Below, one piece after another: positions 1,831 through 55,232 of a DNA stretch of 64,000 nucleotides. The DNA is from an uncultured Candidatus Saccharibacteria bacterium (GTDB taxonomy: Bacteria > Patescibacteriota > Saccharimonadia > Saccharimonadales > JAGQNJ01). The position numbers were made by a program, and so were the translations under genes. The stretch is taken from positions 578,208-642,207 of the forward strand of contig OZ246406.1 of the NCBI GenBank assembly GCA_965231045.1, given 5' to 3'. Under the pieces are notes generated by a model. The model was not told where the DNA came from and ran no database searches. It saw only the letters and a program-made list of their open reading frames with translations. Each line of letters starts with the position of its first letter. The stretch's first letter is position 1.

Positions 1831-3699
1831 CTAATAAAGGGCAGCTGAACTTGGCATTACTGAGCCCTTGAGAATTTCGAGCACTTCATCAGCTTCTACG
1901 GTTTCTTTTTCGATTAATGCATCCTTTAGATGTTCTAGTTTAGTTTTATTGGCCTTGATTACGTCTTTGGCACGACGGCTGGCTTCGGTAATCAGGTTTT
2001 CGACTTCATCATCAATAATCTTGGCTGTCTCATCAGAATATTGTCGTTCGTGAACCATTCTCTCAAGCATCATGCCTTCTTCTACATGGAAAACTTGATC
2101 ACGAAGTTTACGACCCATGCCCTGGTTTACAACCATATCACGTGCTAACTCAGCAGCTTTTTGCAAATCACTCCCGGCACCAGTTGTCACACGATCTGGG
2201 CCATACATAACCTCTTCTGCAACACGTCCACCAAGCATTCTAGCTAGGACGTCCTTGTATTCGATGATGCTGTGATAGCTTTTATCTTCTGGCGGGATAA
2301 ACCACGTTACACCCCCGGTACCACCGCGCGGAATTATAGTAACTTTATGAACCATGTCACTGTCTGGCAACACATGCCCGACAATGGCATGCCCTGCTTC
2401 ATGATAGGCTGTTAGCTCTTTTTCCTGATCGCTCATGATCTTGCTCTTGCGTTCTGGACCAATCGCAACTTTCTCAAACGCCGCTGTTACATCAGCTTGT
2501 GATATTTCTTTATGACTATGTCGAGCAGCGGTGATAGCAGCTTCGTTGGCAATGTTCGCAAGGTCAGCACCTGAGCTACCTGCAGTCTTGGCAGCCAATG
2601 CGTCTAAGTCGACGTTTTTGGCCAGTGGCTTTTTATCAAAATGAACTTTTAGGATTGCCTCGCGGTCTTTGCGATCAGGCAATGCAATGTTGACACGTCG
2701 ATCAAAACGACCTGGTCGAAGCAATGCTGGATCAAGCACATCGGCTCGGTTAGTTGCCGCGAGGACAATAACGTTCTGTCCTTGCTCAAAACCATCCATT
2801 TCAACCAAAATTTGGTTTAGTGTTTGTTCGCGCTCATCATGACCACCGCCCATTCCAGAACCACGTCGTCGTCCAACAGCATCGATTTCATCCACGAAAA
2901 TAATACATGGGGCATTCTTCTTGGCCTTAGCAAATAAATCACGAACACGTGATGCACCAACACCAACAAACATCTCTACGAATTCAGAACCAGAAATACT
3001 AAAGAATGGAACATTAGCTTCACCGGCAACTGCCCTAGCCAACATTGTTTTACCAGTTCCTGGAGGGCCAACTAGCAGCACGCCTTTTGGAATACGCGCC
3101 CCAATTGACTCAAACTTCTTAGGAAATTTCAAAAATTCAACAATCTCTTGTAAATCTATTTTAGCCTCATCACTTCCGGCAATATTAGCGAAAGTAACTT
3201 TATCTTTTTCATTGCCATACAGTCGAGCACGGCTTTTACCAAAGCTCATTGCTTGGTTGCCTTGACCTTGTGCGCTACGCAACATAAAGAACAATGCCAA
3301 AGTAATTAGGAGTACTGGTATTACTGAAACACCAATGTTTACCCAAGTTGAACCAGCGTTTGAGGGCTGTTTAACGTCGACCACAACATCACGATTTGTA
3401 AGCCCTTGCTCATAAATACTAGAGCCTGATTCTTTGTTAGACTTCTCGGTTGGTTGATCATCACCCTTTTTGGTAATTGTCAGTTGATCGCCTGTGACTG
3501 TAATCTTCTGGATTTCACCATTATTTGCTCGGTTGATAACATTCGAGAAATCGGCGTGCTTTAAGTTATCTGGTTTATATAAAGAAGCAAAAATAACTAA
3601 CCCAATAAGAATTAGGGCAACTATAAAGCCAATGTTTTTGAAGCCACGGCGCTTGTTGTAATCATTATTTCCACTCGGTTTAAAAGGTTTTTTATCCAT
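1831..3699 (-). CDS. ftsH: ATP-dependent zinc metalloprotease FtsH
   Basis: Has an N-terminal TM segment, Walker A GPPGTGKT, an AAA second region of homology and the HEAGH zinc motif. Confidence 0.95.
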
Positions 3700-3741
3700 G
3701 CGTGCATTTATTATACAGATTGAGTAGACAGAACGCCAATC

Positions 3742-4614
3742 TTAGGGTTTAAGTAACAACAAGTCTTTTTGAATTTCTATCGTTACGCCTTTCTTAACCG
3801 GAATAGTTTTGCCAGGCTTTAGAGTTTTTGCGCTAATCACAATTCGTTCGATTATTTTACGATCAAACTCTGTAACACCGTTTGTTCTTAGCCAGCTCGA
3901 TATTAATTCTTTGGCGAGTACATGATCGGAGTTAATTACATTTCTTTTATCTAAAGTTTTTTCCTGCTTTTGATATTCTGCTAGTAACTTGTCGATTTCG
4001 GGATTATGGTGAGAAAGCGTGGCATGAATATCTAGAAACTTCTGACGATCATGTTCGCTAAGTCTTGGAACAATCTCGTGCCGAATTTTATTTCTCAAAT
4101 AATTGGTATCGATATTGGTTGAATCTTCGTGCCAAGTAAGTGAGTTTTGTTTGGCATAGTTAATAAGTTCTTGCTTTGTAACTCCCAAAAATGGTCGTTT
4201 TAGTTTTTCTTGATCACTTAATGAAGTAATACCTTTTCGACCAGTACCACGAAGTAGGTTCAGAATAATTGTCTCGATTAAATCATCTTGGTGGTGGGCT
4301 GTAATGATCGATTTGGCGTGGTGTTTGTTCATGACTGATTCCAAAAATTCGTACCTGGCTTGGCGTGCAGTCGATTCACTAGCAGTACTCCCAAGATGCC
4401 CTTCAGCATATTCAAATAACAAACCATACTTACTGGCTAAGTTTTCTACAAATTTTTTGTCATCACCAGAATCCTCACGAATACCATGATCGAAATGCGC
4501 AACAACTAACTCAATATCAGGCTGCTTACTAAGTGCGTCAAGCAATACGACTGAATCAACCCCACCAGACACAGCAATAATATATCGTCCGGGCTTAAGT
4601 ACCTCGATTTTCAT
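3742..4614 (-). CDS. tilS: tRNA(Ile)-lysidine synthase
   Basis: Contains the PP-loop SGGVDS and HFDHGIR. I prefer the internal ATG (MKIEVLKPG...) at 4614 because the longer ORF would overlap the pyrB stop. Confidence 0.85.
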   Translation of the reverse strand: MKIEVLKPGRYIIAVSGGVDSVVLLDALSKQPDIELVVAHFDHGIREDSGDDKKFVENLASKYGLLFEYAEGHLGSTASESTARQARYEFLESVMNKHHAKSIITAHHQDDLIETIILNLLRGTGRKGITSLSDQEKLKRPFLGVTKQELINYAKQNSLTWHEDSTNIDTNYLRNKIRHEIVPRLSEHDRQKFLDIHATLSHHNPEIDKLLAEYQKQEKTLDKRNVINSDHVLAKELISSWLRTNGVTEFDRKIIERIVISAKTLKPGKTIPVKKGVTIEIQKDLLLLKP

Positions 4615-8851: not shown

Positions 8852-8926
8852 AGCGGGATGGAGCAGCGGCAGCTCGCGTGGCTCATAACCACGAGGTCCC
8901 AGGTTCGAGTCCTGGTCCCGCAACCA
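8852..8926 (+). tRNA. tRNA-fMet-like (anticodon CAU), initiator type, CCA encoded
   Basis: AGCGGGATGGAGCAGCGGCAGCTCGCGTGGCTCATAACCACGAGGTCCCAGGTTCGAGTCCTGGTCCCGCAACCA resembles E. coli tRNA-fMet. It has an unpaired 1:72 (A:A) and discriminator A. Confidence 0.85.
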
Positions 8927-8943
8927 AATTAGCACCTCTGTAG

Positions 8944-8973
8944 CAGTCCTATTCTATGCAATAGGGCTGTTTT
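8944..8973 (+). terminator. Intrinsic terminator after the initiator-like tRNA
   Basis: CAGTCCTATT-ctatgc-AATAGGGCTG is followed by TTTT. Confidence 0.65.
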
Positions 8974-9137
8974 CATGTCAAGGGTATTTGGGGATTCATG
9001 TCATCAATGTGTCATCAAACCTCGCGCGGTTACTAACCCGAAGGTTTTAGTCATGCATAGGCGTGAGGGCTTTACGGGCCCGGTGCCATAACATACAATA
9101 GAGTTATCAAGCATATTGCTTGAACGGCTTAGACAGT

Positions 9138-9180
9138 AAAGAACCCCCTACCTTTCGGAAGGGGGTTCTTTGTTTTGTTT
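9138..9180 (+). terminator. Strong intrinsic terminator
   Basis: AAAGAACCCCC-tacctttcggaa-GGGGGTTCTTT is followed by GTTTTGTTT. Confidence 0.7.
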
Positions 9181-9213
9181 GGTGGGTTGTTTTTGATGAG
9201 CCACTACAACACG

Positions 9214-9305
9214 TGGCGGTAGGTGGGGGATTCGAACCCCCGAATGCCGGCTTAGACATCATCCGTTTTGGAGACGGTTACAATCAACCACTCTGCCAAC
9301 CTACC
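9214..9305 (-). tRNA. Unusual 92-nt tRNA, anticodon CCA (Trp), with a 20-nt variable region
   Basis: GGTAGGTTGGCAGAGTGGTTGATTGTAACCGTCTCCAAAACGGATGATGTCTAAGCCGGCATTCGGGGGTTCGAATCCCCCACCTACCGCCA has a 7-bp acceptor, T-arm GGGGG-TTCGAAT-CCCCC and discriminator G. Its anticodon loop CTCCAAA is identical to that of E. coli tRNA-Trp. Confidence 0.6.
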
Positions 9306-9593
9306 AACTTAAAAAAGTACCCGTGAGCAAGGTGGCGGTTTGAACCACAACGCTCATAGATACTCTATTGTAAATATAAGTGGGTAGATCTAAACCTTTA
9401 TCCCGCCGTGTACCCGGTCACGGTTAGCACTCACTATACTGAGAGTGCTAAATACTGTCAAGAAGTTGGTATCTGTTTTTGAGGTGTGCTATTTACAACA
9501 TGCATGTGCTTATCTGTTAACCCTGTTTACTACGCCGTACTTACCGATAACGATCATGGTTAACCAAATGAGCATTGCTACAATATCTTCAAT

Positions 9594-10028
9594 ATGACAT
9601 ATAGAGGAATGGAGCACGAGCCACAGCCAGGCGAAAAGCCAGAAGTCGCCTTTTGGTTTTTTATCCGCTCAGTCCCTGCCGGCGGTGCACCGCGCTACAT
9701 CAAAGAGGGCTGGGTCAATGTTCCCTTGCCTTGTCGTCGACCACGCGGTGAAGGTCCCGAGCTACATCTAGGTGGTGATGTTGACACCGGAGCCCTAGAC
9801 ATCGTTCCGGATGGTGTGTCGATCGATGCCGATGACGCCATCAAGGCTCTGCGATTGTTCGACCGCCACGAGGCTGCTGATTGGTGGCAGAGCTACATGG
9901 ATGACTGCTACGGCACAGCAGTTGGTGAAGGATTGGTATTCCGTGCTGCAGAAGGTCATCTAGTGCCGCCAAGCATGGCCCATCGATTGCTACCCGGACT
10001 TGAAGACTTCGACCGCATCGAGCCCTAG
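9594..10028 (+). CDS. Hypothetical protein (144 aa), markedly GC-richer than its surroundings
   Basis: Long ORF with protein-like composition and no recognisable motif. The start could instead be the ATG at 9609. Confidence 0.5.
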   Translation: MTYRGMEHEPQPGEKPEVAFWFFIRSVPAGGAPRYIKEGWVNVPLPCRRPRGEGPELHLGGDVDTGALDIVPDGVSIDADDAIKALRLFDRHEAADWWQSYMDDCYGTAVGEGLVFRAAEGHLVPPSMAHRLLPGLEDFDRIEP

Positions 10029-10172
10029 CTCCATGTCATCGCGGATGTCATCACAACTCACACCAACCAGCTAGACAGTCGCACACCAGCGCACATTCGG
10101 AATCGTCAAAAACCTCTGTTGACAGGCACTGATGCCCATAATCACCAACAGGGGGGAATGAGGCGCGACTCT

Positions 10173-10243
10173 CTCATAACCACGAGGTCCCAGGTTCGTT
10201 CGCAAAGCGGATGACGAAGTCATCTGTACTGGTCCCGCAACCA
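10173..10243 (+). pseudogene. Duplicated 3' half of the initiator-like tRNA with a 30-nt insertion in the T-loop
   Basis: 10173-10198 is identical to 8882-8907, and 10229-10245 is identical to 8912-8928. The AGTC of the T-loop is replaced by ttcgcaaagcGGATGACgaaGTCATCtgta. The 5' half of a cloverleaf is absent. Confidence 0.75.
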
Positions 10244-10253
10244 AAAGCACTTT

Positions 10254-15199: not shown

Positions 15200-15275
15200 G
15201 GGGGTGTAGCTCAGTGGTTAGAGCAGTCGGCTCATAACCGATTGGTCCCAGGTTCAAGTCCTGGCACCCCCACCA
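15200..15275 (+). tRNA. tRNA with anticodon CAU, tRNA-Ile2 (lysidine)-like, CCA encoded
   Basis: GGGGGTGTAGCTCAGTGGTTAGAGCAGTCGGCTCATAACCGATTGGTCCCAGGTTCAAGTCCTGGCACCCCCACCA has D and T arms close to those of E. coli tRNA-Ile2. An extended -10 (TGgTATACT) lies about 40 nt upstream. Confidence 0.8.
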
Positions 15276-15284
15276 CATTTGAAT

Positions 15285-16328
15285 ATGAATACAACTAAAC
15301 TCCACCCTAGAGTCTCAGCGAGACTCATCATTATCGTTATTACCGCCTGTCTGATTGTTTTTGGTGCCCTACAATTTCTCGAAGCAAATCCAAAACAAGT
15401 TGCCGTAACTCCAGCCCCTAGACTAAGTGTTGATGAGTTTTCATATGAATCAAGTAAGCTGACCGATTTAGTCGACAAAGACAGTCCAAAAGATGCCTTT
15501 GCCTATATCGAAGATAATTTGCCCACCAACCCCTCATTTGCACGCGATTGTCACCCACTACTTCACGAAGTAGGCCACGAAGCATTTCATAAATACGGTA
15601 GCTTTTCTGAAGCCATAAAGTTTCAGAACGAACTTTGTAATTCTGGATACACGCATGGGGTTATTGAATCTGCCTTTGATCATACCAAAGATATTTCAAG
15701 TCTTGTAAAAACCATCTGCAATATTGATAGTCAAACTAAATTCCAGCAATGGGAATGTTTCCATGGTGTTGGTCATGGCGTGATGATTTATAGCAACCAA
15801 GATGTTAACAAATCTTTAGAACTTTGCGCCAAGTTACCTTCACAATTTGCCACTGATTCATGCAAGAACGGCTTGTTCATGGAGCGCTTTGTCGTAATTG
15901 ATCATATTGGTAACATTAACCCAAAAAAGACGGTTGATTTAAACTTTTGTGAATTACAACAACCTGAAAACAAAGCCGACTGTTACTTATATGCTCCAAG
16001 TGGATACCTAACGATTCACACTAATGAATACAAAGCGGCACTTGAATGGTGCAAAGGTTCTCAGCCCAATTATTATCAAGCATGTATTAGGGGTGTTGGT
16101 ACACAAGTTATGAAAGATAATATAACTCAGCCAACTATTGCGTTGAGCATTTGCGACAAAGCACCAAAAAATACCAATGATACCTGCATAAGAGGTGCTG
16201 TAGGCTTACAAATTGTCAACGATGGTTCGGTGCAACGAGCAAAAGAACTCTGTCAAAACGAATTCAAAAAATACAAAATAGCTTGTGTAGAGGAAGTATC
16301 AGCTAGCCAAAGCTTATTGTCACTATAG
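15285..16328 (+). CDS. Membrane-anchored Cys-rich extracytoplasmic protein with an HExxH motif
   Basis: Has an N-terminal TM, the motif LHEVGHEAFH and repeated C..G(V/T)GH segments. The ATG lies only 10 nt after the tRNA 3' end. Confidence 0.6.
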   Translation: MNTTKLHPRVSARLIIIVITACLIVFGALQFLEANPKQVAVTPAPRLSVDEFSYESSKLTDLVDKDSPKDAFAYIEDNLPTNPSFARDCHPLLHEVGHEAFHKYGSFSEAIKFQNELCNSGYTHGVIESAFDHTKDISSLVKTICNIDSQTKFQQWECFHGVGHGVMIYSNQDVNKSLELCAKLPSQFATDSCKNGLFMERFVVIDHIGNINPKKTVDLNFCELQQPENKADCYLYAPSGYLTIHTNEYKAALEWCKGSQPNYYQACIRGVGTQVMKDNITQPTIALSICDKAPKNTNDTCIRGAVGLQIVNDGSVQRAKELCQNEFKKYKIACVEEVSASQSLLSL

Positions 16329-16329
16329 A

Positions 16330-16361
16330 TTATCGAGACTTTTTGAGGGTTTCGCCCCACC
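16330..16361. repeat. Direct repeat copy 1 (orphan copy of the FMN-reductase 3' end)
   Basis: ttatcgagactttttgagggtttcgccccacc matches 20447-20478 at 31 of 32 positions. Confidence 0.95.
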
Positions 16362-16373
16362 TTAGGCTTTCAA

Positions 16374-17405
16374 TTAAACTCGGTTAATAAGTAACTGTTT
16401 TACTGCCATAGTTGCGTAGCAGCCTGTGGGCAAAAAGAAATCTAACTGAAGTTTAAACTTTCCTCTATGTAGCTCATCAATACTAACTGTACTCGTATAA
16501 ACTTTAGTGCCTATTAAAGACTGCCTAGTCTTCATATAAGTTTCAACCCCCGTTGCTTTGGAGTATTTATATCCTTGAATATTAATAAATGGAGTGACTG
16601 CAGTTTTATAATTTTGTAGCACAGGGAGTCTATACCCATCAAAAATATCAACCATTTTGGTGTTTTTAATAGATGCTAAAGATTGAGCCACTATTTCGTT
16701 CCATAAGTAGCTAGTATAGGCTGAAATAAAGAAATCAATCTTTTTAGGATTTAGTCTACTGAAAATATCATTAGTTATAGAGTCTTTGTTATATCCGTCG
16801 ATTTTTGCATTACCGCTTTCTATATAGAATTTCAGCGCTTTCTCTTTATCATCCAATACAATGGCTTCACCAATTTTCTGTGATACAAAAGGACCTCCTG
16901 GTAAACCAAATCTCTGCTGGTCATAATAATTTACAAATATATGCTCACTATTATTACTAATTGATTTAAAAAGCTTGTTTGCTTCGCTTTCAGTAAGCCC
17001 GCGTAGTGTTACCCCAAAAATATTGCCATGAAGCTTTTTTTCTTCTAAGGGTTTTTTGGAATAACCATGAAGTCTAAATCTTATGTACCTATCTTTACTA
17101 TTGTGTAATTTATTAAGCTGATCTAAATCACTTTGTTGAAGTGTCTTTTTTGCAGACATGTACTGCTTAGTGATACCATCTTCATCTTTAAGACCAAGGC
17201 AGTTAATATAGTCTCTGCTAATACCTAGATTTACAGCTAATATATCGATGACTTCGAAGGTCGTAAAACTGCTTTTTTCTACTTGGATAATTGTGTATGG
17301 GAAGCTTTTTGGTTGCGTCTGAATATCTGTCGGCAAACTTGGGACTTCATCAACTATAAAGTCTGAATTTAGTTCCTTAATTGAAATGTCTTTATAGATT
17401 TTCAT
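16374..17405 (-). CDS. truD: TruD-family pseudouridine synthase-like protein
   Basis: GLKDEDGITKQ (catalytic Asp region), NYYDQQRFG and FFLPTGCYATMAVKQLLIN align with E. coli TruD motifs. The gene is AT-richer than its neighbours. Confidence 0.8.
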   Translation of the reverse strand: MKIYKDISIKELNSDFIVDEVPSLPTDIQTQPKSFPYTIIQVEKSSFTTFEVIDILAVNLGISRDYINCLGLKDEDGITKQYMSAKKTLQQSDLDQLNKLHNSKDRYIRFRLHGYSKKPLEEKKLHGNIFGVTLRGLTESEANKLFKSISNNSEHIFVNYYDQQRFGLPGGPFVSQKIGEAIVLDDKEKALKFYIESGNAKIDGYNKDSITNDIFSRLNPKKIDFFISAYTSYLWNEIVAQSLASIKNTKMVDIFDGYRLPVLQNYKTAVTPFINIQGYKYSKATGVETYMKTRQSLIGTKVYTSTVSIDELHRGKFKLQLDFFLPTGCYATMAVKQLLINRV

Positions 17406-17595
17406 GCTATCCTCAGAATATAATTTGACTGGGTGGCGTCATTTTAAAATGCTTTGGTCTATGTTTCGTATAAACCCGAGGCTATAAAATACTCATTGCC
17501 ACACGCAGTCAAATTAAGTGGATTATTATAGTACTCTCCTTGAAGTAATTCAATAACTTATTTTGAATATTGGTATTTTATGATATAACAAGTCC

Positions 17596-17934
17596 ATGGG
17601 ACCCAAGAAACTAGATAGAGACTTTAAAACCGTCAAGGTAACTTGTAATGAAGGTCACGAAGTAGCAAGATATCGTAAGCCCAAAGCCGAATGGGGGCAT
17701 AGAACCCATAAACTGTGGCTTGTTCAAGAACGGATAGGAAGGCTTTCGACTGAGCCACCAATACTAGTTGAAGACGAAAAAACACATGAAGAGTTTTTAG
17801 ATATTCCTGAAGTTGATACGCCCATCTTCTGTGGAGACAAAAATTGTGGGTTGCAAGTTGGTACCATTGCTATGATTAAGGGAACTGTTGCCTTGGAGTT
17901 AGCTGAGCAAAACCTAAAACCGACTAAAGGCTAA
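17596..17934 (+). CDS. Hypothetical 112-aa protein with Cys/His pairs (possible zinc binding)
   Basis: Contains C17-x3-H and C79-x4-C. Its 3' end overlaps the convergent PreA-like gene by 4 nt. Confidence 0.5.
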   Translation: MGPKKLDRDFKTVKVTCNEGHEVARYRKPKAEWGHRTHKLWLVQERIGRLSTEPPILVEDEKTHEEFLDIPEVDTPIFCGDKNCGLQVGTIAMIKGTVALELAEQNLKPTKG

Positions 17935-19160
17935 TCACCGTTAGGTAGTTTAATCGCCCCTTCAACTGGGCAAACTGCAACACAGAGCCCACAACCGACA
18001 CAAGCCTCGCCGATTATTTTCACAATATGACCGTTTCGATTACTACTCGTTTCTGTTTCAAAAGCTTCTGGCAGGCAGGAAGGAACACACCTATCACAAC
18101 CAGTGCATATATTCTCATCTATGATAGGAATTTGTGGCTCAAGTTCTGTCGGCTGGTTCATAATATCTAAGGCCTGGCCTTGAGCTTCTTTGATACTGCC
18201 GATATTATGGTCACTCATGTAAGAAACAAGTGACTTAGTAAGTGTAGTTAGTGCTTCAGGTGCATTTGTCCCTCTGTCATGAAGATAAGAGTAAACCTGC
18301 ACAAGACTTGCCCCGGCATAGATCATTTTCATCGCCCGTTCGGCAGTTGTCACCCCTCCACTTGCTATAACGGGCAAACCTACTTCATTGCTAATAAGCG
18401 CAACGTCCGTAAGTGCAATGTGAAACAATGAGCTTCCAGACAAACCGCCACGTGCGCCTTCAACACCAAGAACACGCTCGGGTCTACCTTGCTTGTTAAT
18501 CTCAAAATCGAACACAGGGCCAAGAGTATTAACTGCAACAATACCGTCAGCTCCAGACTCCTTAGCGATTTCACTCAAATGAACAATATAATCTGAATGA
18601 CCAAGTTTTAAAGCTACGGGTGTTTGTACCCCCGCTTCTTTTATTGATCCAACAAGTTGCTTAAGGTGTTCTTCATCTCGTGTAATATAACCGATAACAC
18701 CGTTGGTCACACCACATCCGACATTTATTTCAATGTACGGAAAACTATAATCATCCACCTCTTTACAGACCTGCACACAACCATCAATATCTCTCCCAGA
18801 AACAGCCATAACTACTCTATCCGTTTTACTCAATTCTTCTAGGTAGGGGCGCCAATAGCTAATATCTGAACCAGTCCATTCAGCATTTAACATGTTTACA
18901 TTTGAGCGAGCACCCACCTGGTAAAGATGCGGGGAAGGATGAACCGACCTTTCCATGACTAGACGAGTCGTCCGTGGAACCACTGCACCTGCACCTGCAT
19001 CAATAAATGGCTGGACAGATTCTACCTGCTCAATAAGCGTTCCTGAAGCAACAACCAATGGCGATCGATAAGTCTTCCCAAATACCTCAGTTTCCAAACC
19101 CATTGAGGGGTCAATATTACCAAGCAGCTCATTTCCTGATTCAATACTAATATTGGGCAT
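17931..19160 (-). CDS. Dihydroorotate/dihydropyrimidine dehydrogenase-family flavoprotein with C-terminal 2x[4Fe-4S] ferredoxin domain (PreA-like)
   Basis: DHODH-like motifs are PLVVASG, IEINVGCGV, AVNTLGP, GGLSGSS, IASGGV and GASLVQV. The C-terminus carries CTGCDRCVPSC and CVGCGLCVAVCP. Confidence 0.8.
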   Translation of the reverse strand: MPNISIESGNELLGNIDPSMGLETEVFGKTYRSPLVVASGTLIEQVESVQPFIDAGAGAVVPRTTRLVMERSVHPSPHLYQVGARSNVNMLNAEWTGSDISYWRPYLEELSKTDRVVMAVSGRDIDGCVQVCKEVDDYSFPYIEINVGCGVTNGVIGYITRDEEHLKQLVGSIKEAGVQTPVALKLGHSDYIVHLSEIAKESGADGIVAVNTLGPVFDFEINKQGRPERVLGVEGARGGLSGSSLFHIALTDVALISNEVGLPVIASGGVTTAERAMKMIYAGASLVQVYSYLHDRGTNAPEALTTLTKSLVSYMSDHNIGSIKEAQGQALDIMNQPTELEPQIPIIDENICTGCDRCVPSCLPEAFETETSSNRNGHIVKIIGEACVGCGLCVAVCPVEGAIKLPNGD

Positions 19161-19746
19161 AGAAATCCTCCGCTAGTGACACGATTTCTTCAACTTGTTG
19201 ATCACGTACCGCACGGTTAACATCAAATACTTCATCTACAATACCTTTTTCATATGCACGGGTTACTTCATCAATTTCTGTCATCGCCAAATCTAGACGT
19301 AAGCTAACATTATCAGTACCAGAAGCTTCCCTATCCAATAAGTTCAGCTCAAGCGTTTCACGTGCAGCGGTTAGGCCAATAATGATTGATGGGCGCGTAA
19401 TAACTAAATCGGAGTATTTCTCAATTATTGAGGAATGAACCTCAACAAGTTGATCTCGGGTAGGAGCAAAAGTATCCCCAACAAATCCATATAGCGGACT
19501 TCTCTTTTCGCGAAATGGCCTGTGTGGCAGTACGATGTTGCCGGATCCGACTCTGTCCCAAAACTCACCTAAAGGCACGCCTGATTCTCTTGAAGCTGCC
19601 TCGCCCACTCGTATAGGACGTGTGGTTACCACAATAGGCTCACTAAGTATCAAGGGAGCTAATCTATCTTTGATGCGATCCTTAATGTGTTCTTTGCCTA
19701 CACCTGAAGGCCCGCATAGGGCAACAATGGGTCTGACTTCACTCAT
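19147..19746 (-). CDS. Guanylate-kinase-like P-loop protein (atypical Walker A GPSGVGKE)
   Basis: GPSGVGK plus a TTRPIRVGE segment resembles Gmk. It overlaps the downstream PreA-like gene by 14 nt. Confidence 0.6.
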   Translation of the reverse strand: MSEVRPIVALCGPSGVGKEHIKDRIKDRLAPLILSEPIVVTTRPIRVGEAASRESGVPLGEFWDRVGSGNIVLPHRPFREKRSPLYGFVGDTFAPTRDQLVEVHSSIIEKYSDLVITRPSIIIGLTAARETLELNLLDREASGTDNVSLRLDLAMTEIDEVTRAYEKGIVDEVFDVNRAVRDQQVEEIVSLAEDFYAQY

Positions 19747-19813
19747 GTTTGCGAACTATACAATATAAGTTCAATTTTTACAATATATATTATCTCCGTG
19801 TTACTATGCTTGC

Positions 19814-20443
19814 ATGGTTATTCAATTCAAGGCTAACGACGCCCGGGGAACCCAACAATATTGTATACATTGTCAATTACCTGGCGTTATTGTCACTAAT
19901 GCCGAAGGTGGACAAGAACTATTTAGATGCACAAACTGCGGTAAAGAAAGTCAGCGAGCTATAATTATCGACCCTTCGGTCAAATGGTGGATAGATGATA
20001 AAAAAATATACTGGCATCAATCAGTTGGGGCAATTCTCATAAACAATGAAGGTAAAATTCTGTTATTTAGACGTACAAAGTTTCCAATTGCTACAGTGTT
20101 CCCGGCAGGGCATATTAATGCTAACGAACAGCCTGAAGAAGCATTTATTAGAGAAGTAAAAGAGGAAACAGGCATTTCATTAAAAAAAGATCAGGCAATT
20201 TTGCTTAATCATGAGGTTATTCATGATGATAGTTGTAGAAGAGGATCCGACGATCATGAATGGTGGATTTACGCCGCCTATGTCAAAAACTCACATGTAC
20301 TAATTGATAAGAGAGAGGGCAAGCACCCTCAGTGGAAATCTCTTGGTGAGATTAATACAACTGACATGCCTCATGCTGCAAAATACATTTTAGAAAAAAA
20401 TTCCTTGGCCATAAAAGAGTTTATAGATAGACAGGAAAACTAA
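19814..20443 (+). CDS. NUDIX hydrolase with N-terminal zinc ribbon
   Basis: CIHC-x18-CTNC is followed by the Nudix box GHINANEQPEEAFIREVKEETGI. Confidence 0.8.
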   Translation: MVIQFKANDARGTQQYCIHCQLPGVIVTNAEGGQELFRCTNCGKESQRAIIIDPSVKWWIDDKKIYWHQSVGAILINNEGKILLFRRTKFPIATVFPAGHINANEQPEEAFIREVKEETGISLKKDQAILLNHEVIHDDSCRRGSDDHEWWIYAAYVKNSHVLIDKREGKHPQWKSLGEINTTDMPHAAKYILEKNSLAIKEFIDRQEN

Positions 20444-20446
20444 AAC

Positions 20447-20478
20447 TTATCTAGACTTTTTGAGGGTTTCGCCCCACC
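20447..20478. repeat. Direct repeat copy 2 (the functional 3' end of the FMN-reductase gene)
   Basis: ttatctagactttttgagggtttcgccccacc encodes ...WGETLKKSR* on the minus strand. Confidence 0.95.
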
Positions 20479-21007
20479 ACTTTAGATTTTCGAGCATTCC
20501 ATCAATATTGCCTTGCACGTATTTTTCTTCCACACTACCATCTTCTTTTAAGGCTTCCCAAGGATGAACAATGCCGACAAAAGTCTTGGACAGGGGCATC
20601 ATGCCAACCTTAGCGGCAACATCAACTAATTGCTCAACAGCGCGAGTCGCACCATAGGTGCCATAGCCAACAAAAGCCACGGGCTTTCTATCCCACTCAT
20701 GATAAACGCTATCAATCGCGTTCTTAAGTGGCGCCGGAATACCGTTATTATACTCAGCTGTTATAAAAACAAACCCATCTAATTCATTAACCTTTTTACT
20801 CCAAGCTATTGTCTCCTCTTGCGTGTAATGTCCGGATGACGGTGATTCAGGCTCGCTTAAGAAAGGTAAGTCGATTTCTTTGAGATCAAGCAATTCAAAT
20901 TCTAGATCAGGATTGTTTGAAACTTGGTTCATAAACCAATCGGCAATTTTACGGCCCGATCGGGTAGGGCGGGTAGTGCTAACAACGACACCAATTTTTA
21001 GACTCAC
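20447..21007 (-). CDS. NAD(P)H-dependent FMN reductase family oxidoreductase
   Basis: The flavodoxin-like N-terminus IGVVVSTTRPTRSGRKIADW and a 186-aa length are typical of the family. It uses a GTG start. Confidence 0.75.
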   Translation of the reverse strand: MSLKIGVVVSTTRPTRSGRKIADWFMNQVSNNPDLEFELLDLKEIDLPFLSEPESPSSGHYTQEETIAWSKKVNELDGFVFITAEYNNGIPAPLKNAIDSVYHEWDRKPVAFVGYGTYGATRAVEQLVDVAAKVGMMPLSKTFVGIVHPWEALKEDGSVEEKYVQGNIDGMLENLKWWGETLKKSR

Positions 21008-48033: not shown

Positions 48034-49401
48034 ATGAAAAAAGATATTGTAACAAAAAGTATTGAAGCTCCTGCTGAACTGTTAGATAAAACCCTTGAGA
48101 CCACTCAAGACATTGGACGTCGCCTACAAAATGACAAGACGCTAAAAAGAGGCAAAGATTACTGGGATACACTAGGGCCAGGCCTTACGACGGGCGCATC
48201 TGACGATGACCCATCTGGAATTGCTACATACTCTCAAGCTGGTGCACAGTTTGGGTTCCAGCTCCTTTGGATGGCAGCCTTTACCTTTCCTCTTATGTCC
48301 GTGGTTCAAGAAATGTGTGCTCGTATCGGTTTGGTAACTGGTCGCGGTTTAGCAGCGAATATTCGTATAGTTTTATCCCGAAGAGTCTTATATATATGTT
48401 CAATTCTACTTTTTGCGGCCAATGCCTTTAACATTGGGGCCGACTTAGGAGCAATGGCAAAAGGCGCTCAACTTATAGCTCCGGGATTCAATTTTACTTT
48501 GTTAGTTATTGGATTTGCCATATTGATGCTTGGACTACAGATATTTACTCCTTATGAACGATACGCAAAATATCTTAAGTGGTTAGCCATGGTTTTGTTC
48601 GCCTATATTCTGTCTGCAATTTTGGCACACCTTAACTGGAGCGATGTTTTACATCATGCTGTAGTTCCACATATAACATTCAGCAAAGAACAAATTTTAT
48701 TAATCTGCGCCATCCTAGGTACGACTATTTCACCTTATCTATTCTTTTGGCAAACATCACAAGAGGTTGAAGACCAAATTGCTCAAGGCAAAACAACTGT
48801 GCCAATGCGACAAGGCGCTTCTAAGCAGGAAGTAAAGAGTATGCGTATAGATGTTTGGTCAGGCATGCTCTTATCTAATCTTGTTATGTTCTTTATTATC
48901 GCAGCATGTGGTGCTCTGTTATTTACTAAAGGTATAACAAACATTGATTCTGCTGCCCAGGCCGCAGAAGCGCTAAGGCCATTTGCCGGTAATGCTTCAT
49001 ACTTCCTTTTTGCAGCCGGGATTATTGGTACGGGGCTCCTAGCAATACCTGTTTTAGCCGGCTCAAGTTCATACGCCATTTCTGAAAGCCTCAAAAAACA
49101 AGGCAGTTTGAGCAAAAATCTCAAACAAGCCTATGCTTTTTATGGTGTGATTATTATTTCAATGATGGTTGGCCTTGCTATTAATTTTATTGGGCTTAAC
49201 CCAATAAAGGCATTGATTTATTCTGCAGTAGCTAACGGAATTGTTGCACCAGTAGTGCTGGTATTGATATTGCTAATTAGCAGTAATAAAAAAGTTATGG
49301 GTGAATGGGTTAATGGACCAATAACTAAAATAGTCGGATGGTCCACGACCGTACTAATGATTGCAGCGGGTGGAGCAGCAATCTTTGCACTATTTTCATA
49401 G
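48034..49401 (+). CDS. NRAMP-family divalent metal transporter (copy 1)
   Basis: An 11-12 TM protein with GPGLTTGASDDDPSGIATYSQAGAQFG. Confidence 0.8.
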   Translation: MKKDIVTKSIEAPAELLDKTLETTQDIGRRLQNDKTLKRGKDYWDTLGPGLTTGASDDDPSGIATYSQAGAQFGFQLLWMAAFTFPLMSVVQEMCARIGLVTGRGLAANIRIVLSRRVLYICSILLFAANAFNIGADLGAMAKGAQLIAPGFNFTLLVIGFAILMLGLQIFTPYERYAKYLKWLAMVLFAYILSAILAHLNWSDVLHHAVVPHITFSKEQILLICAILGTTISPYLFFWQTSQEVEDQIAQGKTTVPMRQGASKQEVKSMRIDVWSGMLLSNLVMFFIIAACGALLFTKGITNIDSAAQAAEALRPFAGNASYFLFAAGIIGTGLLAIPVLAGSSSYAISESLKKQGSLSKNLKQAYAFYGVIIISMMVGLAINFIGLNPIKALIYSAVANGIVAPVVLVLILLISSNKKVMGEWVNGPITKIVGWSTTVLMIAAGGAAIFALFS

Positions 49402-49455: not shown

Positions 49456-50844
49456 ATGGCAAACAGAATAACTCCCAATAAAGCCCTTAAGACAGCCGAG
49501 AAGGACCTAAAAAAGTCTGAGAAGATTGTCACAAATAATTTACGTAAATACGTGCTAAATCGTAAAAGATTTGGTAGGTTCCTACGTATATTAGGGCCCG
49601 GTCTTGTTACAGGCGCTGCTGATGATGATCCGTCTGGAATTGCAACTTACTCTCAGGCAGGTGCCGGCTTTGGCTATGGTTTGCTATGGGCATTTCCTTT
49701 AATGTTTCCGCTTTTACTGGCCGTACAAGAATCATGCGCTCGTATCGGTGCAATTACAGGTAAAGGTTTAGCCGCCGTTATTAAAGAAAACTATAACAAA
49801 AAACTCCTGTATCTTTGTGTAATATTAGTTGTAGTTGCTAACACCATAAATATTGGAGCCGATTTGGGGGCTATGGCAGCAACAACCCAATTATTAGTCC
49901 CCGTATCGTTTGCAGCATTAGCGATATTTTTTGCAGTAGTTATCGTCTTGCTGGAAATCTTTGTTAGTTATAAAACGTATGCTCGCATACTTAAGTGGCT
50001 CGCCCTTGCCCTATTTGCCTATCCGATAACCGCATTTATTGTTGGGCAACCATGGGGTGAAGTTATTAAGGCAACCTTTCACCCGGCCCTGCATTTCGAT
50101 TTTACGACTGTCTATATTTTAGTGGGCATGATTGGTACTACAATTTCGCCTTATTTGTTTTTTTGGGATACGTCAGAAGTTGTTGAAGGTGAACTGGCTA
50201 GCAAACGACTAAGCTCAGCTGGCAGTACACCAAAAATAACTAAACATTTCTTGCACAGCATAAGAGTTGATAACTTCACTGGAATGGCTTTAGCAAGCAT
50301 CGGTGCATGGTTTATCGTGGTAACCTGTGCTTCAGTACTATTCAAAAATGGCATTACTCAGATTAACACTGCAGCTGATGCTGCTCGAGCAATTGAGCCA
50401 CTTGTTAAGAATTTCCCGAATGCCGGGATAATAGCCAAGCTTATTTTCTCTGTCGGAATTTTAGGTCTTGGCCTGTTAGCTGTTCCTGTTTTGGCAGGAT
50501 CAAGTTCATACGCAATAACTGAAGCCTTGGGTTGGAAAGAGGGTCTAAACCGTAAGTTCAAAAGAGCTGTGGGATTTTATGTGGTTATTATTATTGCCAC
50601 ATTATTAGGGCTAGGCATGAATTTCCTAGGTATTGACCCAATAAAAGCCTTAGTATTTACAGCTGTATTTAATGGTATAGCTGCCGTACCGTTATTATTT
50701 ATGATTGCTCGAGTTGGTAATAACCGGGCAATTATGGGACAGTACAAAAATAGTCATTTATCTAATATTTTTGTCAGATTGGCGTTTCTAACAATGTTAG
50801 CTGCGGTTATTGTCTTATTTTATACATTTGTAACTAAGGCGTGA
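49456..50844 (+). CDS. NRAMP-family divalent metal transporter (copy 2, tandem paralogue)
   Basis: Contains GPGLVTGAADDDPSGIATYSQAGAGFG and is colinear with copy 1. Confidence 0.8.
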   Translation: MANRITPNKALKTAEKDLKKSEKIVTNNLRKYVLNRKRFGRFLRILGPGLVTGAADDDPSGIATYSQAGAGFGYGLLWAFPLMFPLLLAVQESCARIGAITGKGLAAVIKENYNKKLLYLCVILVVVANTINIGADLGAMAATTQLLVPVSFAALAIFFAVVIVLLEIFVSYKTYARILKWLALALFAYPITAFIVGQPWGEVIKATFHPALHFDFTTVYILVGMIGTTISPYLFFWDTSEVVEGELASKRLSSAGSTPKITKHFLHSIRVDNFTGMALASIGAWFIVVTCASVLFKNGITQINTAADAARAIEPLVKNFPNAGIIAKLIFSVGILGLGLLAVPVLAGSSSYAITEALGWKEGLNRKFKRAVGFYVVIIIATLLGLGMNFLGIDPIKALVFTAVFNGIAAVPLLFMIARVGNNRAIMGQYKNSHLSNIFVRLAFLTMLAAVIVLFYTFVTKA

Positions 50845-55035: not shown

Positions 55036-55165
55036 AAAAAATCCTGCTCGTTGAGCAGGGATAGAATGGTTGTCTTTCGCTCCTGCTCGGGAGACTTTCT
55101 TAGGCTGTATCGGGCTTTAACCGTTGCGGCACAGCGTAGGAATTTCACCTACTTCCAGCTTATTT
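55036..55165 (-). promoter_or_regulatory. Cobalamin (B12) riboswitch candidate with intrinsic-terminator expression platform
   Basis: The minus strand reads GGAAGTAGGTGAAATTCCTACGCTGTGCCGCAACGGTTAAAGCCCGATACAGCC. This matches the conserved GGAA..GGTGAAAxTCC..GC.G..CCGC.AC.GT.A core and a B12-box-like AGCCCGAxAC.GCC. It is followed by GAGCAGG...CCTGCTC-aac-GAGCAGG-ATTTTTT and then the ATG. Confidence 0.65.
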
Positions 55166-55232
55166 ATTTTGTTAAGTAATAGTAGTATATCACCAACTAA
55201 ACACACTATATGTAGTAGTTTTGGCTATATTT

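Follow-up and report, generated by a model that had tools for sequence, protein, structure and literature searches.

Introduction

In the pseudouridimycin pathway, the TruD-like enzyme PumJ and the kinase PumH have been proposed as the source of pseudouridine or of a phosphorylated form of it (PMC8724604, PMC10127198). Here, we analysed a five-gene module whose TruD-like enzyme groups with PumJ by sequence, and which lies between positions 16330 and 20478 of a 64,000-nucleotide stretch of contig OZ246406.1 (assembly GCA_965231045.1, positions 578,208 to 642,207 of the forward strand) from an uncultured Candidatus Saccharibacteria bacterium; this whole stretch is called the window below. The module shares with that system the clade motifs NYYDxQRFG and GLKDE[DE]G of the TruD-like enzyme, as well as the pairing of a putative pseudouridine-forming enzyme and a nucleotide kinase of the P-loop type. 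However, the tailoring genes of the PumJ and malayamycin systems (oxidase, aminotransferase, ATP-grasp ligase, radical SAM enzyme and enolpyruvyl transferase) are absent from it, it adds a reductase resembling dihydropyrimidine dehydrogenase (DPD) and a nucleoside triphosphate (NTP) hydrolase, and its hosts are tiny-genome bacteria of the candidate phyla radiation (CPR), not actinomycetes.

The reductase resembles PreT-PreA and mammalian DPD in its FMN-binding TIM barrel with C-terminal 2x[4Fe-4S], its uracil-binding Asn and its catalytic Cys, but it comes without the FAD- and NAD(P)H-binding PreT partner and scores far under the PreA cut-off. In phage T4, the dCTPase gp56, the dCMP hydroxymethylase gp42 and the dNMP kinase gp1 form a pathway for a modified nucleotide. 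The likeness to the module lies in the combination of an NTP pyrophosphatase, an enzyme that modifies the base of a nucleoside monophosphate (NMP) and a dedicated NMP kinase; the proteins share no homology, the module does not lie on phage DNA, isomerisation and reduction would take the place of C5 substitution, and incorporation of the module's product into nucleic acid would be pure conjecture. Integrase-less elements flanked by attachment (att) sites, of the cis-mobilizable element (CIME) type, share with the module direct repeats by which the 3′ end of the target gene is duplicated and rebuilt, a content of cargo only and an empty site in relatives. Here, however, a CPR bacterium's protein-coding gene serves as the target, and the cassette measures only 4.1 kb, with no room for further genes.

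The enzyme families are known, and PumJ/PumH, the nearest system, has only the first step in common with the module; the cluster combination is found in no published description, and there is an appreciable chance that its chemistry is new. A literature search retrieved no account of a cluster of TruD-like, DPD-like and Gmk-like genes, in agreement with an earlier note on this DNA, made from the sequence alone, which knew of no described system of this composition. With a probability of about 0.5, we propose from the sequences that the five genes form a mobile cassette, which would be the Saccharibacterial variant of a CPR gene cluster acting on free uridine-type nucleotides.

Results

Five genes are enclosed by two copies of the 3′ end of an FMN-reductase gene

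The anatomy of the module, its conservation, its insertion and the active-site residues of its enzymes are shown by the sequences. A 32-nt direct repeat occupies 16330-16361 (TTATCGAGACTTTTTGAGGGTTTCGCCCCACC) and 20447-20478 (TTATCTAGAC...), with 1 mismatch and a spacing of 4117 nt. The 20447-20478 copy, which we regard as the proximal att-like boundary (minus strand), comprises the last 10 codons and the stop codon of the presumed target gene, FMNred, which encodes an NADPH-dependent FMN reductase (186 amino acids (aa); 20447..21007, minus strand; Pfam FMN_red 7.7e-33), and reads ...WGETLKKSR* on the minus strand. The other copy is an orphan 3′ end of FMNred and forms the distal att-like boundary (16330..16371, minus strand), with a core at 16330-16361 and a gapped extension to ~16371. 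Ungapped similarity between the copies reaches 40 nt at 90%, and allowing a 3-nt gap carries it ~10 nt deeper into FMNred. The mismatch is G/T on the plus strand and CGA/AGA on the coding strand, with Arg encoded either way. The earlier note had reported that the end of FMNred recurs with one change, AGA to CGA, that preserves the coding sense; we located both copies accordingly, and the retained Arg was confirmed on the minus strand.

The same note had counted exactly five genes between the repeats, and the open reading frames (ORFs) and Pfam domains bear this out, including a 14-nt overlap between the flavoprotein and Gmk-like genes. No further copy of the 32-mer was found in the window when up to 3 mismatches were allowed, and 100 shuffles gave 0 matches; it is present only at the two expected places and is not a common dispersed repeat. 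A terminator-like structure was found at neither copy, and the idea that the repeat is a terminator was dropped on this ground. An Rfam search of the module gave no match.

The module is absent from syntenic relatives and recurs at the same site and elsewhere

In the four relatives L093, L096, L099 and L100, FMNred is 76-81% identical to that of the window, the flanking synteny is kept (Mur ligase ... ABC transporter, Caroten_synth, Dus, HxlR and FMNred, with DivIC on the other side) and the module is absent. A 124-aa YggT-like gene directly follows FMNred in all four, and behind it stand, varying by genome, a homologue of the window's X349 gene, an MFS transporter, a Peptidase_S66 (MccF-like) gene or small ORFs. 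The earlier note had named as a check an empty site in which FMNred abuts the X349 homologue; the module is missing from four syntenic relatives, and the YggT-like gene occupies the site. The whole FMNred-DivIC interval, equivalent to 15300-20450 of the window, is a variable hotspot in these relatives. FMN reductase and HxlR are thus present in relatives without the module. The FMN-reductase gene is not among the genes of the conserved cluster described below, and no FMN_red gene stands beside the module in L008, L090 or ~35 CPR loci.

We found the module at the FMNred site in three lineages, namely the window, L091 (TruD-like protein 96% identical) and L088 (TruD-like protein 68%, FMNred 77%), and in all of them a copy of the FMNred 3′ end follows just past the stop codon of the TruD-like gene. 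The orphan of L088 extends over 43 nt at 93% and matches the gene end of L088 itself, which is unlike that of the window at 11/32 positions, while the orphan of L091 is degenerate (80% over 40 nt). Moreover, the five genes recur in unchanged order at unrelated loci without FMNred in L090 (TruD-like protein 50% identical) and L008 (40%), and the whole module lies at an unrelated locus in L112 as well. The five genes therefore occur together elsewhere, which the earlier note had named as a check: complete sets were found in L008, L090, L088, L091 and L112 and partial copies in L107-L111. Beyond L090 and L008, copies appear in six JGI metagenome contigs. Identical proteins occur solely in the Logan run SRR13287415 and other metagenome assemblies, plus one NCBI contig. 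Metagenome-assembled genomes of Candidatus Saccharibacteria make up the syntenic relatives as well as the closest genomes of the GTDB scan. Although module-bearing and empty lineages interleave in a neighbour-joining (NJ) tree of FMNred, this tree was not used as proof of independent gains, because the history of FMNred differs from that of the module.

An identity step suggests that the end of FMNred travels with the module

We compared the window base by base with L091, its closest relative. The module (window 16326-20525) is 92-99% identical between the two, the remaining part of FMNred and HxlR are 78-82% identical, and beyond HxlR there is no alignment. The step from ~79% to ~96% identity falls at ~20520, ~40 nt outside the FMNred-side repeat, and the last ~70 nt of FMNred (20447 to ~20519) show the ~96% identity of the module, which indicates that these ~70 nt travel with it. 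The orphan differs between the window and L091 at 7/32 positions and is as divergent as the body of FMNred, and the adjoining 88 nt on the module side are identical. Such a pattern would be expected of incoming DNA that carries its own gene end and pushes the native one to the far side.

We therefore consider a model in which the cassette would have arrived through recombination at the FMNred 3′ end. A second copy of this end would have come along on the incoming DNA, the native end would have been displaced and left as the orphan past the TruD-like gene, and the recombinase would act in trans. The claim of the earlier note that this is a mobilised cargo module is supported by the empty relatives, the recurring FMNred duplication, the copies at unrelated loci and the identity step against L091, and none of the three conditions that the note had named as refuting it held when they were examined.

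On the other side of the module, X349 encodes a Cys-rich protein with a hydrophobic N-terminal segment and no Pfam match. A third tRNA-Met (15200-15279) abuts its start, and several ~105-kb Logan contigs stop just past X349, so that the assembly may be broken there or the junction may vary between strains.

The module is a rare variant of a gene cluster spread across CPR bacteria

A scan with the TruD-like alignment, using one genome per species, yielded 80 loci. The TruD-like gene lies within ~3 kb of PreA-like and Gmk-like genes in at least 32 CPR loci, which belong to Saccharibacteria, Paceibacterota, Uhrbacteria, Kerfeldbacteria, unclassified Patescibacteria and one DPANN-labelled contig; loci without this clustering are few and mostly on short contigs. 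The cluster is accessory and patchy in distribution, and in ~35 CPR loci it is surrounded by ordinary housekeeping genes and does not lie in a defence island. A thymidine-kinase-like gene was read by eye beside the cluster in L017 and L026.

The loci fall into types by gene order and content. Type A (TruD-F7 / Gmk-PreA-F2) accounts for 22-23 loci and type B (F2-TruD-Gmk-PreA-CYTH) for 3-4, type C (Nudix + TruD + F2-PreA-Gmk) was found in L039, and type D (Nudix / Gmk-PreA / CH112 / TruD) comprises the window, L008, L088, L090, L091 and L107-L112. In this scheme, F2 stands for an 81-aa protein in which five cysteines are invariant, F7 for a divergent CYTH protein (cyaB match 8.4e-5, with a cross-match to the F81 profile), F81 for a clear CYTH protein (Pfam CYTH 2.6e-19) and CH112 for the 112-aa Cys/His protein of the window. 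The Nudix protein occupies the phosphohydrolase slot that F7 or F81 fills elsewhere, CH112 fills the slot held by the 81-aa Cys4 protein in other variants, and L039 pairs a window-type Nudix protein with the 81-aa protein. Given that CYTH and Nudix proteins swap across the variants, one slot is always a phosphohydrolase and another always a small Cys-rich protein. The module of the window is thus a rare variant of a cluster spread across CPR bacteria, a wider setting that the earlier note had not recognised, nor had it placed the TruD-like enzyme in a PumJ-type clade.

The TruD-like enzyme groups with C-nucleoside biosynthetic enzymes rather than tRNA TruD

The enzyme assignments of the earlier note proved right at the family level. 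The gene of the TruD-like pseudouridine synthase, of the PumJ/malayamycin-type clade, spans 16374..17405 on the minus strand (Pfam TruD 1e-41; Asp74 in GLKDEDG). Its AlphaFold2 (AF2) model reached a pLDDT of 94, and the best Foldseek matches were the TruD/Pus7 structures 1z2z, 1sb7 and 5kkp (E 1e-17 to 1e-15, TM 0.55-0.64). The protein adopts the TruD/Pus7 fold, its catalytic Asp lies within a GxKD motif, and K73 and D74 are invariant in 41 sequences. The Pfam match is limited to profile positions 17-198 of 412, which is the N-terminal half, while the canonical TruD P0055 matches positions 2-412 at 1e-144. Further, the protein scored 116.9 against the TIGR00094 cut-off of 172.2 and stayed far under the cut-offs of the remaining TruD models, so that it reaches neither the TruD equivalog cut-off nor the full length of the family profile, and it is 22.6% identical to E. 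coli TruD over 239 aa. After the catalytic Asp, KDK[HR] in E. coli and M. mazei TruD is replaced by KDE[DE] here, a change from basic to acidic.

A pattern search with NYYDxQRFG and GLKDE[DE][GA][IV]T picked up the CPR genes together with genes from biosynthetic gene clusters (BGCs) of Streptomyces and Xenorhabdus. In an NJ tree with a single outgroup and no bootstrap, the TruD-like enzyme was sister to the BGC enzymes of actinomycetes and Xenorhabdus and far from E. coli TruD. Judged by these sequence comparisons, the enzyme groups with the PumJ/malayamycin clade rather than with tRNA TruD. Members of the BGC clade include a Streptomyces malaysiensis locus (L055) and a Xenorhabdus locus (L073), the latter of which encodes an amidinotransferase, a radical SAM enzyme, 2-oxoglutarate (2OG) oxygenases, a MurA-like transferase and an aminotransferase; nucleoside-antibiotic tailoring genes were found neither in the window nor in the CPR loci. 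In protein P0054 (563 aa), an HD_3/YfbR-like nucleotidase is fused N-terminally to the TruD-like domain.

TruD-like genes from Chloroflexi/Anaerolineae (L044, L045, L053, L058 and L061) nest in the CPR clade without PreA-like or Gmk-like partners and adjoin a short-chain dehydrogenase gene or large genes of no known kind. In the window, a divergent intergenic region (17406..17595) separates the TruD-like gene from the gene of the 112-aa protein and contains, as a consensus match only, a promoter-like TTGAAT-17-TATAAT on the minus strand (17553-17525).

The reductase keeps DPD active-site residues and the kinase loses guanine-reading residues

The PreA/DPD-like gene (17931..19160, minus strand) encodes an FMN flavoprotein with C-terminal 2x[4Fe-4S] (Pfam DHO_dh 2.6e-29 plus Fer4 families). 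The family profile matched pig DPD at 2.9e-45, and the DPD residues N609/E611, N668, C671, N736 and K709 are kept as N92/E94, N146, C149, N211 and K185. The eight Fe-S cysteines are invariant, and the position of DPD K574 is occupied by Arg. By alignment, the reductase keeps the uracil-binding Asn and the catalytic Cys of DPD. It scored 134.9 against the cut-off of 335 of the PreA equivalog model NF006183, no PreT- or GltD-like partner gene was found in ~35 loci, and a faint Dus match (0.0042) was obtained.

The Gmk-like P-loop NMP kinase is encoded at 19147..19746 on the minus strand, with the P-loop GPSGVGKE. Its Guanylate_kin match is weak (6e-4), and it scored 31.5 against the TIGR03263 cut-off of 160. 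Across 18 sequences, S13, G16, K17, T41, R42, R45, Y82, R138 and R149 (E. coli numbering) are invariant, so that the P-loop, the TTRxxR phosphate clamp and the LID arginines of guanylate kinase are kept. In contrast, S38 and E73, which contact guanine in known Gmk structures, are replaced, the former by V or W among other residues and the latter by P, Q or H among others. This loss of guanine-reading residues with retention of those for the NMP phosphate indicates, at the level of sequence, a Gmk-like kinase of non-guanine specificity.

In L048 (11841-13562), a single 573-aa product combines a Gmk-like domain with a PreA-like protein. Fusion or translational coupling with an NMP kinase suggests that the substrate of the PreA-like enzyme is a nucleotide and not a free base. 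A search for Gmk-like homologues, limited by its word index, returned 5 proteins and no fusions, and the Gmk-like family profile found no member near the actinomycete TruD-like genes. In L112, an FMN_red-family gene (3484-4041; 185 aa, 25-31% identical to that of the window) directly follows the type-D Nudix gene, and this neighbour may reflect a functional link to the PreA-like flavoprotein or a coincidence.

The Nudix protein and CH112 complete the module

The Nudix hydrolase gene (19814..20443, plus strand) encodes an N-terminal CxxC...CxxC zinc ribbon and a Nudix domain (Pfam NUDIX 5.9e-18) with the Nudix box GHINANEQPEEAFIREVKEETGI. The pattern GX5EX7REUXEEXGU is legible in the translation, which places the protein among the Nudix hydrolases, and its best matches, MutT and RppH, are weak and point to no particular subfamily.

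CH112 (17596..17934, plus strand) has invariant C17, H21, C79 and C84 and no Pfam or NCBIfam match. Among 1.84 billion representatives we found ~3 clusters of true homologues, which occur only with the type-D module; of the 7 matches of the exhaustive search, 4 were set aside as false positives, being repetitive and eukaryote-like. The gene adjoins the PreA-like gene at every carrying locus, and the remaining module genes are near where the contig suffices. An alignment of CH112 with the 81-aa family by hhalign gave a probability of 7.6% over 23 columns, and the AF2 model of CH112, built from 4 sequences, was unusable (pLDDT 42). A C2H2-like reading of the 81-aa family was dropped because the C2H2-like histidines are not conserved, and the corresponding PDB search gave zinc-finger and zinc-ribbon noise only.

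Other features of the window

About 1.3 kb past a tRNA-Met (8852-8926), the 3′ half of this tRNA gene recurs in part (10171-10245), broken by ~27 nt. Between the copies the GC fraction rises to 0.53-0.55, and a 92-nt 'tRNA-Trp' (9214-9305, minus strand) and a 144-aa ORF (9594-10028) are present; the interval 8852-10245 resembles the remains of an element that had integrated into tRNA-Met. An AdoCbl-II cobalamin riboswitch was identified at 55097-55175 (minus strand; 41.1 bits against the Rfam gathering score of 36.5). An 80-nt direct repeat (49007-49086 and 50444-50523; 73% identity, 1437 nt apart) probably reflects two tandem paralogous membrane-protein genes.

Discussion

The kinship of the TruD-like enzyme with C-nucleoside BGC enzymes, the fusions, and the residues of the kinase and the reductase converge on free uracil-type mononucleotides as substrates. 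The earlier note had read all recognisable parts of the module as acting on pyrimidines or nucleotides, and this reading gained from the TruD-like clade, the DPD residues, the kinase residues and the nucleotidase and kinase fusions. From the same features we infer the substrates, step order, direction and product of a possible pathway. The Nudix protein, or the CYTH protein in other variants, would cut a uridine tri- or diphosphate to the monophosphate, and the TruD-like enzyme would then turn the N-glycoside into a C-glycoside, UMP into pseudo-UMP, as proposed for PumJ and the malayamycin enzyme. The DPD-like Fe-S flavoprotein would add or remove two electrons at uracil C5-C6, with electrons passing through its two [4Fe-4S] clusters and possibly the small Cys protein, and the Gmk-like kinase would re-phosphorylate the modified monophosphate. 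We suggest tentatively that CPR bacteria might carry a new pathway, in some cases on a mobile cassette, in which a direct UMP-to-pseudo-UMP isomerase, a ferredoxin-type uracil-ring reductase and a dedicated NMP kinase might together lead to a new C-nucleotide. An equally speculative candidate for the product is, for example, 5,6-dihydropseudouridine di- or triphosphate, which might serve as a building block, a cofactor, or an antimetabolite against or from actinobacterial hosts.

Several points weigh against a mobile cassette acting on free nucleotides. The YggT-like gene of the four empty relatives is missing from both module-bearing lineages, which simple integration alone does not explain; the 196-aa gene that follows the orphan of L088 was considered as a YggT counterpart and is not a homologue, so it does not rescue simple integration there. 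An integrase or transposase domain was found neither in the module nor in 10 kb of Pfam-annotated flank next to FMNred, as the earlier note had also seen for the module, so that the locus has the duplicated gene 3′ end and the empty site of a site-specific element but not an integrase of its own. Bracketing repeats are lacking at L008 and L090, and on the X349 side the identity pattern against L091 is a mosaic, not a clean step: the 3′ part of X349 (15855-16253) is ~76% identical between stretches of 92-98%, with mismatches mostly at every third base. As to the chemistry, we know of no metabolite that needs both U-to-pseudo-U isomerisation and C5-C6 reduction, and a literature search for dihydropseudouridine returned no paper. 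Moreover, whether PumJ acts on a free nucleotide or on tRNA is biochemically unsettled (PMC10127198).

With respect to mobility, the module and the YggT-like gene might instead be alternate occupants of a hotspot that are swapped by homologous recombination, with no site-specific element at all; the copy of the FMNred 3′ end would then be what an old illegitimate event left behind, with gene conversion having preserved its similarity. YggT is absent wherever the module sits, the FMNred-DivIC interval differs in each relative, and FMNred, HxlR and part of X349 have histories unlike those of their neighbours, all of which fit such replacement, as do the missing integrase and the repeat-free loci L008 and L090. 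What it leaves unexplained is the in-frame 32-43 nt duplicate of the gene 3′ end at one boundary in three lineages, which in L088 matches its own diverged gene end; this is a classical integrase-type footprint and is unexpected from homologous replacement. We regard hotspot replacement as a possible but distinctly less favoured account. Considering the insertion evidence together with these complications, we therefore accept the module as mobilised cargo and leave the mechanism between an integrase acting in trans and hotspot replacement.

The function can be read in other ways as well, among which salvage comes nearest, although we hold it to be rather unlikely. CPR bacteria such as Saccharibacteria rely on scavenged nucleotides, and the module might salvage or sanitise modified pyrimidine nucleotides from degraded host RNA, of which those with pseudouridine and dihydrouridine occur most abundantly: UMP would be regenerated from dihydro-UMP through oxidation by the PreA-like enzyme, modified NTPs and NDPs would be brought down to NMPs by the Nudix or CYTH protein so that misincorporation is avoided, and the kinase would put usable products back into the pool. 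This dependence on scavenging, the accessory and patchy distribution (like that of nutrient-use modules), the reversibility of DPD-type chemistry, the role of Nudix proteins as classic house-cleaning enzymes with MutT and RppH as weak best matches, and the thymidine-kinase-like neighbour in two loci would suit it. However, U-to-pseudo-U isomerisation is strongly downhill, owing to the thermodynamics of the C-glycoside, and a TruD-type enzyme is therefore poorly suited to recovering UMP; known pseudouridine catabolism runs via PsuK and PsuG, and the nearest TruD-like relatives are biosynthetic. If RNA were the substrate, which seems still less probable, the TruD-like protein would be a tRNA pseudouridine synthase, the PreA-like protein a ferredoxin-dependent dihydrouridine synthase, the kinase and the CYTH or Nudix protein would remodel RNA 5′ phosphates, and the small zinc protein would bind RNA. 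The TruD/Pus7 fold with its catalytic Asp, the occurrence of RNA triphosphatases among CYTH proteins and of RppH among Nudix proteins, the faint Dus match of the PreA-like protein and the fact that the use of free nucleotides by PumJ-type enzymes is a proposal speak for RNA, but the TruD-like protein fails the equivalog cut-off and covers half of a profile that P0055 matches at full length, the basic residues after the catalytic Asp of TruD are acidic here, the nucleotidase and kinase fusions point to small molecules, the kinase site is that of an NMP kinase and not of a polynucleotide kinase, and a separate ordinary Dus gene lies nearby in every relative. The earlier note had also raised signalling and phage defence; on such a reading, the module would, once induced, deplete or otherwise change the pool of UTP or give rise to a nucleotide signal. 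An accessory, mobile module in a variable hotspot would be in keeping with this, CYTH proteins can be cyclases, and the Nudix protein weakly matches the PADLOC candidate PDC-S07 (2.6e-11). Yet 4/5 module proteins have no PADLOC 2.0 match, no sensor, effector or nuclease-type partner is present, IMG/VR viral contigs hold no related copies, the interchange of CYTH and Nudix fits hydrolysis and not cyclisation, and the housekeeping surroundings of the ~35 CPR loci are not those of defence islands. With no meaningful PADLOC match and no viral relatives, the defence role finds no backing, and we consider it highly improbable.

The preferred interpretation, a mobile cassette acting on free uridine-type nucleotides, would have consequences in several directions. 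The module offers a compact setting, free of tailoring genes, in which the action of PumJ-type TruD enzymes on free uridine nucleotides could be settled, and a direct UMP-to-pseudo-UMP isomerase, if true, would be of interest for the pseudouridine used in mRNA medicines. In Saccharibacteria, a group whose mobile elements are little known, there are few concrete signs that cassettes move, and the att-like duplication at a protein-coding gene is one of them. If the function were assigned, it would be the first functional handle on a conserved CPR cluster, in organisms whose host dependence has nucleotide economy at its centre.

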